A DNA stretch of 64,000 bases, from positions 1,760,001 through 1,824,000 of the forward strand of contig OZ242358.1 of the NCBI GenBank assembly GCA_965208835.1, read 5' to 3'. Made by a program: the position numbers and the translations under genes. The stretch's first letter is position 1. Each line of letters starts with the position of its first letter. The stretch comes from Candidatus Latescibacterota bacterium. Its GTDB lineage: Bacteria; Latescibacterota; UBA2968; GCA-2709665. Of the stretch, positions 24,325-29,651 are shown in pieces. The notes beneath the pieces were generated by a model that ran no database searches, was not told the origin of the DNA, and was given only the letters and a program-made list of their open reading frames with translations.

Positions 24325-25512
24325 ATGCCCGTACCGGACATCTACACGGAAACAAGAATCTCCATGCTCACGCCCGAACTCAGGCAGAGGGTGAGGGACA
24401 ACCTTGTAACCTCGCAGTTCACGAAGGCGGGATGCACCCGGCCCGACGGAAAGGATTGGCCGGCATGGTTCGACCAGGCACCGATCCGGCGAATTCGTGT
24501 GGCGACAGGTTCGCGGGCGTTCGGTACCTACAATCATCAGGCCGGAATCTGCAGGTGGCGTGGAAAATACTGGTACGTCTTCTCCAACGGACGCGTGGAC
24601 GAAGAGGCGCCCGGCCAGCGGACCCTGATTACACACAGCGAGGATCTGGCCGCATGGTCACGGCCGGGTTGCGTGGCGCCCGGCGACGTCCAGGGAAGGA
24701 TGTGGCGAAATACCGGTGGAATCATGGGTTACGACGACCGTCTCGTCGTATTCGTGCAGACGAAAACCGGGGGCGGCGTGGCTCGCAGGCCGGGGATGAG
24801 CGCGAGAGACGAAAGCAGGATAACCTGCGGCGTCGGACTCTGCGTGTCTGCTGACGGTGAGAGCTGGACGGAGCGCGACGTCGCCGAGGACTGCTACTGG
24901 TTCGAGGCGCCGCGGCTGACGCGGGAGGGCAGGCTTCTGTGCGCCGGGTCACGGCGAGGACACCCGATCGTGTTCCTCTGGCCCGGAGAGAATCCTCTGG
25001 ATCGTCCCGAGGTCGTGGAGATCCCCTTCGACGGTTCGCGGGGGATGGATTCGGGACGGTTTCCGTACGGAGAAGCATCGTGGTACGAAACGGACGAGGG
25101 CGCGATATTCATGTTCCACCGGAACGAGACGGACGAGATGAGGCTGCGCGTGGCGGTCAGCGAGGACGGCGGCCGAAGCTGGACACCGCCCATGCTGTCG
25201 AATATTCCCGACTCGAAATCCCGCGTCAGTGCGGGACGCCTGACCGACGGTCGTTTTTTTCTTATCAACAACGCCATTGCCGACCTGCTGAACCGGGTGC
25301 CCCTGATGATTTCCATTTCGTCGGACGGCGTGAAATTCGAGCGACAATACTTTCTGATCAACGAAACCACCGCCATTGCGTTTCCTGGCGCGCTCAAGGC
25401 GCACGGCCACCAGTATCCCTGCGCGCTGGTCGAGCAGGACCGGCTGATCGTGGCCTACTCTGTCAACAAGGAACACATGGAACTCCTCACCGTGGAACCG
25501 AGCGACCTGTAA
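24325..25512 (+). CDS. BNR/Asp-box (sialidase-like) beta-propeller protein
   Basis: Asp boxes SEDLAAWS, SADGESWT, SEDGGRSWT, SSDGVKF; C-terminal QYP and YSVNKE; SD GAGGA before ATG 24325. Confidence 0.8.
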   Translation: MPVPDIYTETRISMLTPELRQRVRDNLVTSQFTKAGCTRPDGKDWPAWFDQAPIRRIRVATGSRAFGTYNHQAGICRWRGKYWYVFSNGRVDEEAPGQRTLITHSEDLAAWSRPGCVAPGDVQGRMWRNTGGIMGYDDRLVVFVQTKTGGGVARRPGMSARDESRITCGVGLCVSADGESWTERDVAEDCYWFEAPRLTREGRLLCAGSRRGHPIVFLWPGENPLDRPEVVEIPFDGSRGMDSGRFPYGEASWYETDEGAIFMFHRNETDEMRLRVAVSEDGGRSWTPPMLSNIPDSKSRVSAGRLTDGRFFLINNAIADLLNRVPLMISISSDGVKFERQYFLINETTAIAFPGALKAHGHQYPCALVEQDRLIVAYSVNKEHMELLTVEPSDL

Positions 25513-25526
25513 AGCCGCCGAATCGC

Positions 25527-26168
25527 TCAATCGTTCAGCCGAAACCGGATGGGCATCGACATCTTCACCGCGACCAACCGGTCGTTCTGAACGGCAGGCT
25601 CGAACACGAACTGCGAAACCGCCTCGATCGCCGCTTTCCTGAAGATCTCCGGTCCTCGTACGGCACGGACCTGTCTGACGCTCCCGTCTGCGCCCACCGT
25701 GAACGCAACGAACACTACCCCCTCCAGCCCGGCTTTCCTCGCCAATTCAGGGTAGACCGGCATCGTGAAACGGGTCAGCGAGGGTTTCTGCTCAACTCTC
25801 CAGAATTCCAGGACCCCCTCATCGACGGGCGCAGTCTCGTGACGCGCCGGCGGCGACAGCTCCACGGGAACACGATCCAGGTCCAGTTCGGTCAATTCAA
25901 TGGTCACATCTTCGGGCACCTCGTCGGCATCCGCTTCAATCGGCATTGAGGGCCGCTTGGGGTCAGGACGTCTCGGATGCCGGATTTCGGGAATTGGCTC
26001 GACAATGATCACCTCGGTGCGGCGCACCCGCGCCGGTGTGTCCATCTCGAAAGTTGGAAACATCACTGCGAGGACCAGAAGAAACACGACGGAGATCCCG
26101 ACACTCCGTGCCATCACCTTCGGGTACGCCAGCTTCAGATCCGCTTCGGGATGCTTATAACGCAACAT
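25527..26168 (-). CDS. tonB: Energy transducer TonB
   Basis: N-terminal TM, Pro-rich linker, YPELARKAGLEGVV.V.FTV..DG, F.PA.Q....V...PIRF. Confidence 0.9.
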   Translation of the reverse strand: MLRYKHPEADLKLAYPKVMARSVGISVVFLLVLAVMFPTFEMDTPARVRRTEVIIVEPIPEIRHPRRPDPKRPSMPIEADADEVPEDVTIELTELDLDRVPVELSPPARHETAPVDEGVLEFWRVEQKPSLTRFTMPVYPELARKAGLEGVVFVAFTVGADGSVRQVRAVRGPEIFRKAAIEAVSQFVFEPAVQNDRLVAVKMSMPIRFRLND

Positions 26169-26229
26169 CGTCGGCCTCCTTTCAGGTTGTATGTTAACCG
26201 TGACAGGTTGATTTTCCGTTCACCGTCTC

Positions 26230-26802
26230 TCACCTGATATCCAGAATGCGCCTGAGTTTCTCGCCCCAGAGAGCCAGCTTGAGGGAAACGTAGGATCCTC
26301 CAACCATCCGGTCTCTCAACACTCCGAACCGATCCACAAGAAACGTCGTCGGAATGGCATCGACGCCGTACTGCCTTCTGGCCTTGTGTGCTTCATCAAT
26401 CAAGGTGATGAAGTCGTAGTCCCTCTCCATCACAAAATGACGAGCGATGTCCAGAGATTCAATGTTAACGGCCATTACTACAAGGTCGAGACCCGTCTCT
26501 GACACGTGCGCCTGGTTCAGGTGCGGCAGCGAATCAACACACGGTCCGCACCACGTCGCCCAGAAATCAATAAGAACGGTCTTGCCCACATAATCGCTGA
26601 GCCGTACGAAATTACCGTCGATGTCGTGGAGGACAAGATCGGGCGCTCTCTTCTTCAGTTCGGCTGCCGCCTCTCCGTCCGCACCCACGGACACAGGGAT
26701 CTTTCAAGGAAAGGCAGTATAGATGTAGAACATGTGGCCGAGAACCAGTATCGCGAGAACGGCATTGATGCGCTTCAGCGGAAACCCTTTCGCTGGTCTC
26801 AT
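26230..26802 (-). CDS. Membrane-anchored TlpA/ResA-like thiol-disulfide oxidoreductase with in-frame TGA at codon 33 (candidate selenoprotein, or nonsense allele)
   Basis: SD AAGGA + ATG 26802; MRPAKGFPLKRINAVLAILVLGHMFYIYTAFP*KIPVSV... continues in frame into FWATWCGPC...IPTTFLVDR.G. TGA at 26706-26704. Confidence 0.75.
26670..26698 (-). promoter_or_regulatory. SECIS-like mRNA hairpin downstream of the in-frame UGA
   Basis: UGA-AAGAU-CCCUG-UGUCCGU[GGGU]GCGGACG-GAGAGG. Upper stem 7 bp; apical loop starts with G, 18 nt after UGA. Confidence 0.5.
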
Positions 26803-26857
26803 CGCATTCCTTTGCGGCTTCTAGGCCCGTCCGCACGCGGGCAGACCCAGACAGTGA

Positions 26858-26871
26858 ATTAACGAATTAAT
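26858..26871. promoter_or_regulatory. ATTAA-N4-TTAAT palindrome upstream of the TlpA gene (putative BlaI operator)
   Basis: attaa-cgaa-ttaat; same box at 29701-29714 and 29745-29758. Confidence 0.55.
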
Positions 26872-26917
26872 ATTTGGATTTAAAAAAACGGACGAGTATC
26901 CTCTGCCCGGGCGGATG

Positions 26918-29062
26918 TCAGTCTTCGATGCCTGGCCCGGCCGTCGCGAGCCGGTCCTCGTAGAACGGCCCCGTTTCGAACGTCCTGGCCACGACGTCCA
27001 GTTGACGAAGATAGGTCTCTTTTCTTCTGTTAGGGCCGTAAACTCCAAGGTCCAGGAAATAGAGCCGGTCCTTTTTCTCGTCCACCAGCACGTAGCTCCT
27101 GAAGGGCCCGCCCTTCCACGAGCGATCGTTCTGCCACAGTCCTTCCAGATGCACTGCCAACCGGCTTCCGAGCTCCCGCTGACTCACGGTCAGGCCGGTT
27201 GGGTCCACGACGTCGTTTTCAAAGAACCTCTCGGCGATCTCGTTCCGCTTCCGGATACACCACGCCTCGGTCAACCGGTCCGGCGGCACGCCGTCCTCCC
27301 GGTAGACAAACATCCACTGGCGCACCCTTGCGTGGGTACGCGTCAGTACCACGAATCCGCTATCGGCGTGTGAGTCGATCATATTGAAGCCGAAGGGCAC
27401 CCGCACGCGCCACCCGAACCGCTCCGCCAACTCCGAAGCGAGCGTCTCTCGTTCGCCGAATCGATAGAGGATGTCGGCGACCCATTCGTCCCGCTTCCCT
27501 TCGACCGCGCCGTAAATCCGGTCCGCTTCCGTCAGGAAGTTGGCTTTCAACGCACCGCGGTCCTCGCCCGTAATCAGCGCGACGACCTGGTCATCCGCCC
27601 ACACGTCACGGCGGATGACAATTGGCGCAGCGCCGTTACGGATGGCTTCTCTCCTTCCGTCCGGAACCAGCGAGCGTACCAGCCTGGCTGCTTCGTGGTC
27701 TCCGTCAAGCGCCGCCGCGATCACGATATTCCTGCGACGCAACGCCCGGAAGTCTCCCGCTCGTACGAACGAGACATGGTATAGACGCTCCTTCCCTGGT
27801 GTCCTTATTATCCTCTCGAAAACGCCGCGGATGGGTATACCCAACATCCGGGCATCCAGGGAATCCGCAATTACCGTAACCAGGTCCGAGCGCCCGGAAC
27901 TGGAGGGCAGGCCGTCCAGCCGCAGGAATGACAGCAGCCGATCCTTGATGGTTGCCAGTTTCACGAAGGCTTCCGACCTGCCCGGCACCTCGACCGCCGG
28001 CCCGCCTCCGCAGTTTGTCAATACCGCGAGGACCAGACCGAAAGCCAGTACGAGGCCGGCCCGTGACAGCCGCCGATCGCGGCCGCCCGGGGCATTCAAC
28101 AGCCGTGAGACCCGCCGAACGACCTGCTTCCGGTTTCCGGGGGCGCCGATTCCCATCGTCAACCCGACCGGCGATGCCAACATCTCGGTCAGCCGGGTGA
28201 GGCAGACCGCGTAACCTCTGGCTCTTCCGGTTATGCCGACCACCGTATCGTCGCACGCGACTTCTCGCTCAAGGTCCATCTGTCGACCGATCCACCATGC
28301 GGCCGGATGGAAGAACAAAACGCACCCGACAATCGCCTGCAGGAGCCTGGACCAGTCATCCAGCCGGTGCAGGTGCGCCAGTTCGTGCAGGACCACCTGA
28401 TCGAATTCCGCCTCCGTCAGCCGCTCCAGCATGGACTCTGGGATCAGAATCACAGGTCTGAAGAGGCCCGTCGCCGCGGGAGCGACCACCTGTGTGGAGC
28501 TGCAAAGGCGCACCCAGCGACGCGTCTCGCAAGCCCGAAGCAGGCGACGCAACCTGTGCTGATAGCGGGCGGGAAGGGGACTTGCACTCCGCTTCAGGCG
28601 CCGAATATGACGAAAAGCCAGGAAGAGCTTCGCCGACAATGCCAGTACGACCAGCATCCATACCGCGAAGACAATCGGCGGCCACGGGCGGGGAAGCTCA
28701 GCCACGATATCCGGCTCCAGGCCCTCCGGCGCTTCGGAGGCGCGCGTCGATTCGTACCCTTTCTCCCGGCTGAGATTCCGGCTTTCGGAGGCCTGCTCCT
28801 CTCTCAATTCCGCTGCCCGGGACCATATTCGTGCGGCGCCCGCATGGTCCGGCGGACTCAAAACTCCGGACCAGGACAGTGCGAACACCGCCGCCAGCGC
28901 GACCGTCCAGATTACGTACCGGGTCCGCGCGTTGAGCCACTTCGCGAAGTTCAGGAGGCACGCGAGCGAAATCGTAACGAGCAGTCCCGGCCAGAGTCCT
29001 TCCAGCACAGCAGACACCGCCAACCGTGAAACAGCGTCGAAGATTTCGTAGGCCGCGAACAT
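26918..29062 (-). CDS. BlaR1/M56 metallopeptidase signal transducer fused to a DUF4837-like extracytoplasmic domain
   Basis: TM helices, HELAH, EREVACDD. C-terminal half (SSGRSDLVTVIAD...EGLWQ...GGPFRSY...YGP) resembles DUF4837 from memory. Confidence 0.82.
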   Translation of the reverse strand: MFAAYEIFDAVSRLAVSAVLEGLWPGLLVTISLACLLNFAKWLNARTRYVIWTVALAAVFALSWSGVLSPPDHAGAARIWSRAAELREEQASESRNLSREKGYESTRASEAPEGLEPDIVAELPRPWPPIVFAVWMLVVLALSAKLFLAFRHIRRLKRSASPLPARYQHRLRRLLRACETRRWVRLCSSTQVVAPAATGLFRPVILIPESMLERLTEAEFDQVVLHELAHLHRLDDWSRLLQAIVGCVLFFHPAAWWIGRQMDLEREVACDDTVVGITGRARGYAVCLTRLTEMLASPVGLTMGIGAPGNRKQVVRRVSRLLNAPGGRDRRLSRAGLVLAFGLVLAVLTNCGGGPAVEVPGRSEAFVKLATIKDRLLSFLRLDGLPSSSGRSDLVTVIADSLDARMLGIPIRGVFERIIRTPGKERLYHVSFVRAGDFRALRRRNIVIAAALDGDHEAARLVRSLVPDGRREAIRNGAAPIVIRRDVWADDQVVALITGEDRGALKANFLTEADRIYGAVEGKRDEWVADILYRFGERETLASELAERFGWRVRVPFGFNMIDSHADSGFVVLTRTHARVRQWMFVYREDGVPPDRLTEAWCIRKRNEIAERFFENDVVDPTGLTVSQRELGSRLAVHLEGLWQNDRSWKGGPFRSYVLVDEKKDRLYFLDLGVYGPNRRKETYLRQLDVVARTFETGPFYEDRLATAGPGIED

Positions 29063-29072
29063 ACAAAGTTCC

Positions 29073-29450
29073 CTAACTGCTTTCGTCCACCATTCGTTTC
29101 AGGCGATCGATAACGTCTCCGTCGACCGTTTCGTTCTCTAGAATGTTCAGCATCAGCGCTTCGGGCGAATTGTTGAAGAACCGGCTCATCATGTACCGTA
29201 CCACGCTTCTCCTGGCGTCCTCGCGGCCGACGACGGGCTGGTAGACGTAGGCCCTGCCCTCCTTTTCGTGGGATACGTAGCCCTTCCGCTCGAGAATTCT
29301 CAGCGTTGTCAACACCGTGCTATAGGCGAGCGGTTCGTTACCCGGCAGCGCCGCGACAACGTCGCGCACGGTGGCTGCCTCCTTTTTCCAGAGCACGTCC
29401 ATCAGCCTGAGTTCAGCTTCCGTAAGCGTGGGCGACTTCGGCCTTGCCAT
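29073..29450 (-). CDS. blaI: BlaI/MecI/CopY-family repressor
   Basis: LTEAELRLMDVLW, LAYSTVLTTLRILERKGYV, GRAYVY.P, FFNNS; directly upstream of the M56 gene. Confidence 0.93.
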   Translation of the reverse strand: MARPKSPTLTEAELRLMDVLWKKEAATVRDVVAALPGNEPLAYSTVLTTLRILERKGYVSHEKEGRAYVYQPVVGREDARRSVVRYMMSRFFNNSPEALMLNILENETVDGDVIDRLKRMVDESS

Positions 29451-29465
29451 ACATTGAACTCCTTA

Positions 29466-29651
29466 GAAGCCGTTTTAAAATTCCCAGCGGTCTTCGCACG
29501 GCTGCAAAAGCGCCGGTCAGCGTTGGTCAAACCCACCCGTCTTACGAGATCGAGGCTGCGCTTGCTCGCCTCTCATAGGCGGGTTTTCCCGCCTTGACCG
29601 CCACTTTTTCGCTCGCGCTCGGGAACTCACCGGTAATTTTAAAACGGGTTC
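29466..29651. mobile_element. MITE family B (186 bp) in the blaI 5' leader
   Basis: TIRs gaagccgttttaaaatt / aattttaaaacgggttc (16/17 match); palindromic interior; flanks TTA and ATA. Confidence 0.8.

Follow-up and report, generated by a model that had tools for sequence, protein, structure and literature searches.

A candidate selenoprotein of the TlpA/ResA type with selenocysteine outside its CxxC motif in Latescibacterota

A 64,000-nucleotide window of the genome of Candidatus Latescibacterota bacterium (contig OZ242358.1, positions 1,760,001 to 1,824,000; coordinates below are positions in this window, and the genome is called G000) carries on its minus strand a gene of the TlpA/ResA thioredoxin-fold type, here called tlpA, whose reading frame is interrupted by a UGA at codon 33. 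The explanation we favor, with a probability of about 0.7, is that tlpA encodes a real selenoprotein, anchored with its N-terminus inside and its C-terminus outside, in which selenocysteine (Sec) at residue 33 sits at the boundary between membrane and periplasm, outside the CxxC motif, while the CGPC domain is carried on a flexible tether. A first-pass annotation, made from the DNA letters, had proposed a candidate selenoprotein with Sec outside CxxC. That proposal is now supported by a TGA at the same codon in seven of seven orthologues, by the Sec machinery of the genome, and by a hairpin of the bacterial selenocysteine insertion sequence (bSECIS) type at the spacing seen in the selD and fdhA genes.

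The in-frame UGA and the frame around it

Mechanical open reading frame (ORF) prediction places the gene at 26230..26694 (minus strand), with a GTG start and a product of 154 residues. Read from an ATG at 26802-26800 on the same strand, the translation runs through MRPAKGFPLKRINAVLAILVLGHMFYIYTAFP, then TGA (26706-26704), then KIPVSVGADGE...FWATWCGPC..., all in one frame, to a TGA at 26232-26230. Each sequence feature named in the first-pass annotation (the ORF start at 26694, the ribosome-binding site, the ATG at 26802, the anchor, the TGA, and an in-frame WCGPC) was found in its place. Position 33 lies beside the anchor and 52 residues upstream of an intact CGPC. The parts of the gene are as follows.

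26808..26812, minus strand: Shine-Dalgarno-like AAGGA, 5 nt ahead of the ATG
26230..26802, minus strand: full read-through coding sequence, 190 codons (UGA at codon 33) and the terminal TGA (26232-26230)
26707..26802, minus strand: N-terminal 32 codons, basic n-region MRPAKGFPLKR and a hydrophobic helix of about 20 residues, read as a signal anchor
26704..26706, minus strand: in-frame UGA, codon 33, the proposed Sec codon, in the context FP-U-KIP
26692..26694, minus strand: alternative GTG start, chosen in the mechanical ORF prediction and by gene callers; it falls within the 5' arm of the hairpin described below
26293..26652, minus strand: thioredoxin-fold domain of the TlpA/ResA/redoxin type, residues 51-170 (Pfam)
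26539..26550, minus strand: active-site CGPC (Cys85 and Cys88), the sole cysteines of the protein

A search of 61 related genomes with the read-through protein found seven full-length matches (residues 1-190), all in one genus and representing seven species, G000 included; the other six (G006, G008, G009, G010, G011, and G014) are 71-89% identical to the G000 protein in amino acid sequence. Every orthologue has exactly one TGA, at codon 33, with no indel and no second stop in its 190 codons. The surrounding context is [ST][AT]FP-TGA-[KT]IPVSVGADG in all seven, and none has Trp or any other sense codon at codon 33. Reading the aligned codon in homologues was a check that the first-pass annotation had proposed, and it returned TGA each time. 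Class-wide and phylum-wide genome searches found no orthologue beyond these seven genomes of the genus. The base call itself, which the same annotation had asked to see confirmed, is borne out by two other studies, whose contigs (runs X5 and X6) span the site, show no difference at 26704-26706, and vary at synonymous sites near it. Because the same TGA occurs in seven species and is unchanged in the X5 and X6 contigs, we can exclude both an assembly error and a private nonsense mutation. By comparison, the terminal stop of the gene is not conserved: the orthologues in G009 and G011 read on, so the internal TGA stays constant while the true terminal stop drifts. In these two genomes (loci L020 and L022, proteins P0003 and P0007), the terminal TGA is missing and about 14 extra codons run into the start region of the TonB_C gene that follows.

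Coding constraint was estimated on both sides of the TGA. Over 21 pairwise comparisons, the ratio of nonsynonymous to synonymous substitution rates (dN/dS) was 0.15-0.53 for the N-terminal 32 codons, and pairwise values for the domain downstream were 0.08-0.26. The synonymous excess in the N-terminus was significant in the deepest pairs (p = 0.0015 for G008 against G010, p = 0.03 for G000 against G010). These figures indicate that purifying selection acts both before and after the TGA. That tlpA is a dead or dying gene through nonsense mutation, or that the TGA is a sequencing or assembly error, is hardly credible in this light. Such an account could point to the absence of tlpA from more than half of the genomes of the genus (8/15), to the CGLC that replaces CGPC in the G010 orthologue, and to a weakened hairpin stem in G014, but it is opposed by the recurrence of one TGA in seven species and in the contigs of two other studies, by the lack of any frameshift or second stop, and by the dN/dS values. 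The TGG-to-TGA change or assembly error that the first-pass annotation had offered as its alternative is contradicted by this conservation together with the purifying selection.

The upstream 32 codons also have their own translation signals. A Shine-Dalgarno sequence (AAGGA, GAGGA, or GGGAA) and the ATG are kept in six of the seven orthologues, and G010 has GTGAAATATG in the Shine-Dalgarno place. The internal GTG has no conserved Shine-Dalgarno sequence ahead of it (AAAGA in most orthologues, AACAA in G010). The N-terminus has a hydrophobic segment or a lipobox in 15 of the 16 unrelated TlpA homologues of alignment A3, and the other, P0165, begins at the domain. It appears, from these comparisons, that the upstream ORF provides the export anchor that is absent from the truncated gene call. 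Export by another route was considered for the same N-terminus, namely a lipoprotein in which Sec replaces the lipobox cysteine. The signal peptide of a lipoprotein ends in a lipobox, of the pattern [LVI][ASTVI][GAS]C, and related TlpA lipoproteins show ...GCS, ...SCT, or ...SCS there. This candidate was rejected, since the context in all seven orthologues is [ST][AT]-F-P-U, where Pro stands at -1 and Phe at -2.

Downstream of the TGA, Pfam scores the domain at 77.7 bits for AhpC-TSA (PF00578, cut-off 26) and 70.9 bits for Redoxin (PF08534, cut-off 26.6). With WCGPC present as well, the region has the characters of a TlpA/ResA-type thioredoxin fold. NCBIfam equivalog models for ResA, TlpA, and DsbE were tested and all score under their cut-offs (ResA 94.9 against 170, TlpA 66.3 against 230, and a third score of 52.6 against 123). 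By these scores the protein is best described as a member of the superfamily that belongs to none of these named equivalogs. The closest solved structures are ResA (PDB 4nmu_A, E = 1.1e-22; 1st9, 8.7e-18) and TlpA (1jfu, 1.1e-14), and both Cys85 and Cys88 are invariant in alignment A3. In an AlphaFold2 model, residues 10-30 form a helix and residues 31-50 a disordered linker, and the thioredoxin fold is predicted with confidence. The predicted local distance difference test (pLDDT) score is 88-97 per ten-residue block over residues 51-180 and 83 over 181-190, falls below 50 at residues 31-41, and averages 71 in the block 41-50. No secondary structure is predicted between the anchor helix and residue 52. 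Compared with ResA and TlpA, the subfamily to which the tlpA product belongs has a longer C-terminal helix (residues 171-189).

Selenocysteine machinery and the hairpin downstream of the UGA

The genome G000 is a single contig of 5.18 Mb, and it encodes the means to insert Sec. SelA (483 bits), tRNA-Sec (73.4 bits), and the wing domain of SelB (75.1 bits) are all encoded in one cluster outside the window, and Sec-encoding selD and fdhA-like genes lie at C1:4401327 and C1:2633285, both on the plus strand and also outside the window.

G000:C1:3536434-3539724, minus strand: tRNA-Sec/selB/selA cluster

The search for selA, selB, selC (tRNA-Sec), and selD that the first-pass annotation had called for therefore found all four. 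The selD gene of G000 has an in-frame TGA of its own, and one TGA each was found in the fdhA-like gene and in a Prx-like "W-U-RRS" gene. Since selA and a TGA-containing selD occur in 15 of 15 genomes of the genus, Sec synthesis should be possible in every genome that carries the tlpA TGA. The Prx-like gene is of the AhpC/TSA type (G000:C1:433241-433627, plus strand), with the context FFRGTW-U-RRS; its downstream hairpin is weak in the fold, and the gene resembles an entry, "Peroxiredoxin-like family protein, UxxS", in the selenoprotein catalogue of the 2026 review PMC13188914.

TGA is the commonest stop codon of the genome and ends 1100 of 2079 long ORFs, so there is no genome-wide recoding of UGA. 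The same count bears on the idea that UGA is read here as an ordinary amino acid without selenium, whether by a change of code (tables 4 or 25) or by near-cognate read-through. A frame that stays open across the TGA would fit that idea, but tlpA itself is among the genes that end in TGA, and a specific mechanism is at hand in the complete set of Sec genes and a hairpin like those of selD and fdhA; we regard the idea as very improbable.

Downstream of the UGA the RNA folds into UGUCCGU[GGGU]GCGGACG, with an upper stem of 7 bp, closed by a U.G pair, and a lower stem CC(C)U/AGG. The first G of the loop is at +18 nt from the A of the UGA, which leaves 17 nt between UGA and loop. The hairpin and those of the two other Sec genes are listed here.

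26670..26698, minus strand: SECIS-like hairpin; lower stem CCCU/AGG..GG; 26693-26687 pairs with 26682-26676; apical loop GGGU at 26686-26683
tlpA hairpin: stem 7 bp, loop GGGU, loop start +18
selD hairpin: stem 7 bp, loop GGUC, loop start +18
fdhA hairpin: stem 7 bp, loop GGUCU, loop start +19

The stem core GUCC...GGAC is common to tlpA and selD. Constraints for bSECIS elements, as given in PMC13188914, are a stem of 4-16 bp, a loop of 3-9 nt with a G among its first two positions, a spacing of 16-37 nt, and a minimum free energy of at most -7.5 kcal/mol. The tlpA hairpin agrees with all of them, at -15.0 kcal/mol for 42 nt in G000 and between -9.3 and -15.0 kcal/mol across the seven orthologues. 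The structure that the first-pass annotation had drawn, with an extendable lower stem and a loop G at +18, is thus recovered by the fold and falls within the bSECIS limits.

Over the seven orthologues the hairpin is nearly invariant: within codons 34-45, six of nine synonymous-capable codons do not vary, and for the remainder of the gene the count is 27 of 82 (p = 0.067). In all relatives down to 46% identity the peptide G-A-D-G, which the 3' half of the hairpin specifies, is unchanged. A constraint at the RNA level would explain this, because the peptide is invariant although it lies beside a disordered linker and has no structural reason to be. As a control we used the bona fide selD hairpin, CAGUCC[GGUC]GGACUG, which is invariant in 13 of the 15 genomes of the genus and has lost its outer pair in G008 and G014, with no covariation. 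The selD hairpin is equally as invariant as that of tlpA, and equally without covariation.

Counter-evidence, the two-cistron alternative, and distribution

A number of observations weigh against the selenoprotein. The fold downstream of the UGA is no more stable than chance (73 nt, -20 kcal/mol, z = 0.41, with 130 of 200 shuffles at least as stable), and no compensatory change or covariation is found in the hairpin among the seven orthologues. The stem has a C.A mismatch in G014 (locus L024). In G010 (locus L025) the loop is GGGC, and this together with a CCU-to-CCC change permits an alternative hairpin 4 nt upstream; the tlpA copies of G010 and G014 may be weakening. Position and shape, more telling than stability, are uncommon and speak for the hairpin: a filter for at least 6 consecutive pairs and a 4-5 nt loop starting with GG, 17-20 nt after the UGA, set post hoc from the selD, fdhA, and tlpA hairpins, passes only 208 of the 141,477 TGA triplets in the genome (0.15%). 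Twelve other TGA-plus-hairpin sites with long flanking frames were scanned with Pfam, and at none does the TGA interrupt a domain; most of the domain-bearing sites among them resemble ordinary gene ends or off-frame ORFs. With none of these further sites a TGA-interrupted domain, the hairpin filter alone is a poor predictor of selenoproteins. Sec33, furthermore, would lie outside any recognizable redox motif, in a linker modeled at low confidence. Cysteine forms exist for most selenoprotein families, and their absence here counts on the same side: protein database searches found no homologue with Cys at the Sec site, and among 1.84 billion representatives searched exhaustively with HMMER, none was listed as a full-length relative carrying a residue at the codon-33 site. 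The absence of tlpA from 8 of 15 genomes shows that it is dispensable. Finally, reinitiation is possible at a GTG that follows the UGA by 9 nt and has a weak AAAGA ahead of it, and the G000 genome has signal-less cytoplasmic AhpC/TSA paralogues.

These last points belong to the main alternative, in which the locus holds two cistrons, a 32-residue membrane peptide that ends at an ordinary TGA and a soluble cytoplasmic thioredoxin-like protein that starts at GTG 26694 or 26688 by termination-reinitiation, the hairpin tuning the coupling. Gene callers take one of these two GTGs in nine of the ten close homologues fetched, the upstream ORF has twice been recorded as a separate 32-residue protein, and these records, the standing of TGA as the usual stop of the genome, the lack of any relative with a sense codon at the site, and the signal-less paralogues are all in keeping with it. 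What speaks against it is that the GTG has no conserved Shine-Dalgarno sequence and is buried in a stem, that a WCGPC domain of the ResA/TlpA type without an export signal would be atypical given alignment A3, that the hairpin matches those of selD and fdhA in position and form, and that an invariant TGA beside a drifting terminal stop is left unexplained. We consider two cistrons unlikely, and return to a selenoprotein as the preferred reading.

The database records deserve description because they shape what can be seen of the family. The 17 closest proteins, at 46-97% identity among 5.8 billion, cover at most 81% of the query. Nine of the ten close homologues fetched start at M(S)(A/V)GADG, a few residues from the TGA site, and the tenth starts 12 residues later. 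With residues 1-40 as the query, the only matches were two 32-residue records, which are the upstream ORF called alone. The nearest anchored or lipoprotein relatives (43-47% identity) have a linker that is not alignable to the Sec site. A query with P0018 matched P0018 itself and one 35% relative, and scans of metagenome and genome contigs with generic TlpA patterns gave relatives of at most 44% identity among the matches listed. We infer that a TGA precedes the distant relatives too (P0013 and P0015-P0018). Every family record fetched is a truncated gene call that has lost the membrane anchor, and the proteins would for that reason be mis-assigned as cytoplasmic, a blind spot of annotation. 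The family is small, with one genus and some metagenome contigs, and contigs from sponge and marine metagenomes (runs X9 and X6) contain DNA of the window as well. One metagenome record, P0019, is a 230-residue protein in which the first ~68 residues of this TlpA domain are joined to the TonB_C neighbor, and looks like a deletion variant of the locus.

The genes that flank tlpA in the window are as follows.

29073..29450, minus strand: BlaI/MecI-like repressor ORF at the head of the cluster (ORF translation)
26918..29062, minus strand: BlaR1-type M56 peptidase with DUF4837 (Pfam), the upstream neighbor, syntenic in 7/7 orthologue loci
25527..26168, minus strand: TonB C-terminal domain protein, starting 61 nt past the tlpA stop

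The ORF at 29073..29450 is one that we take, by the look of its sequence, to belong to the BlaI/MecI family. The order BlaI-like, blaR1, tlpA, TonB_C is kept at all seven orthologue loci. A full-length TonB_C copy, 68-92% identical, is present in 13 of the 14 other genomes of the genus; the exception is G013, with no more than a paralogue at 54% and a fragment at 70%. In seven of the eight genomes that lack tlpA, blaR1 and tonB are adjacent, 175-394 nt apart, with no tlpA remnant. Because carriers and non-carriers interleave by TonB identity, repeated loss of tlpA seems likelier than repeated gain. At the tlpA place in G004, a close relative (locus L226; BlaR1 93% and TonB 88% identical), there are about 280 nt of unrelated DNA with a G/C-rich inverted repeat, CCCCCTCTCCCC...GGGAGAGGGGG, and the site looks like a replacement rather than a clean deletion.

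Between blaR1 and tlpA, an AT-rich motif, AATATTAATTC(G/A)TTAATTC, lies at 26856-26874 (minus strand), after the stop of the blaR1-like gene and a T-run at about 26882-26888. A near-identical motif 3' of blaR1 is clear in 11 of 14 genus loci, with or without tlpA; in G008 and G010 it is missing or doubtful. The genes downstream may have their operator or promoter here. A simple promoter and terminator scan of 26100-27000 found nothing, and an Rfam search of 25400-29600 had no hits at E up to 1. Elsewhere in the genome, a ThiS-family ORF (G000:C1:1647742-1648335, plus strand) closes with ...AIAGGRC before a TGA, and a 6-bp hairpin with a GG loop comes next; that TGA is most likely an ordinary stop.

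Proposed mechanism and comparison with known systems

Under the favored reading, the product of tlpA would be a 190-residue, N-terminally anchored thiol:disulfide oxidoreductase of the TlpA/ResA type, translated from the ATG at 26802. SelB and tRNA-Sec, guided by the hairpin that begins 8 nt further on, would decode codon 33 as Sec. With its positive n-region and its helix of about 20 residues, the N-terminus would insert N-in/C-out, which would place Sec33 (FP-U-KIP) at the outer boundary between membrane and water and the CGPC domain in the periplasm, on a flexible tether of about 20 residues. Some ribosomes would stop at the UGA, so that a 32-residue anchor peptide would be made as well.

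The chemistry is a matter of speculation. Because Sec33 has no nearby Cys, and Cys85 and Cys88 are the only cysteines, the simplest and likeliest possibility would be a selenenylsulfide that Sec33 forms reversibly with the CGPC of its own or a neighboring chain. Such a bond might pass electrons between the domain and a membrane donor, or might serve to regenerate a selenol at the membrane surface that reacts with oxidants. It is rather doubtful, and a good deal less secure than the selenoprotein itself, that Sec33 is in fact a working third redox center of this kind, passing electrons or detoxifying oxidants at the bilayer through a selenenylsulfide with the tethered CGPC. The AlphaFold2 model has no contact between residue 33 and CGPC; because the linker is disordered, the predicted structure would neither support nor oppose an electron relay. 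If this scheme is right, the supply of selenium would decide the product, because the Sec codon sits between anchor and domain. With selenium the product would be an anchored periplasmic enzyme, and without it a free 32-residue peptide, perhaps with a reinitiated soluble domain, a selenium-dependent switch of location within one gene.

Among known systems, Bacillus ResA (4nmu, 1st9) and Bradyrhizobium TlpA (1jfu) share the CxxC thioredoxin fold and are the best structure matches. Both are extracytoplasmic thiol:disulfide reductases with an N-terminal membrane anchor, to which the predicted anchor of the tlpA product may be likened. They differ in having no Sec, and the tlpA product scores under their NCBIfam cut-offs. 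The selD and fdhA genes of the same genome resemble tlpA in having a UGA followed, after 17-18 nt, by the 4-5 nt loop, starting with GG, of a 7-bp hairpin; their loops are GGUC(U), whereas that of tlpA is GGGU over a U.G closing pair. Sec in both is a catalytic residue for which Cys forms exist elsewhere, and neither property is known for tlpA.

Nearest in kind among described selenoproteins is the family modeled as NCBIfam NF041054, a ResA-like selenoprotein with a WAxxUGC motif, which corresponds to "Prx-like (UGC-containing)" in Zhang and Gladyshev 2008 (PMC2398784). The likeness consists of a TlpA/ResA thioredoxin fold, a single Sec, and a bacterial family predicted by comparative genomics. 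The difference is that Sec there is in the active-site motif, to judge from the name of the model, whereas here the motif is WATWCGPC, with Cys, and Sec is 52 residues upstream. Membership in NF041054 was rejected (67.9 bits against a cut-off of 300), and no other NCBIfam selenoprotein model reaches its cut-off on the tlpA product. The thioredoxin-fold selenoproteins for which the available part of PMC13188914 gives a motif (Trx-like, DsbA-like, Prx-like, and thiol:disulfide interchange protein, with UxxC or CxxU) have Sec inside the redox motif; tlpA shares with them the class of fold and the presumed redox use of selenium. No entry with an anchor-proximal Sec and a retained CxxC was seen in that part of the catalogue. 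A literature search found no description of a TlpA with Sec outside CxxC, although an earlier one is possible, recent selenoprotein surveys having been outside its coverage. The tlpA product would be an uncatalogued kind of bacterial selenoprotein. A Sec that stands alone at the junction of anchor and domain, with CxxC kept and no Cys relatives, would point to a role in which selenium is not replaceable by cysteine, and one that thinking based on redox motifs would not predict.

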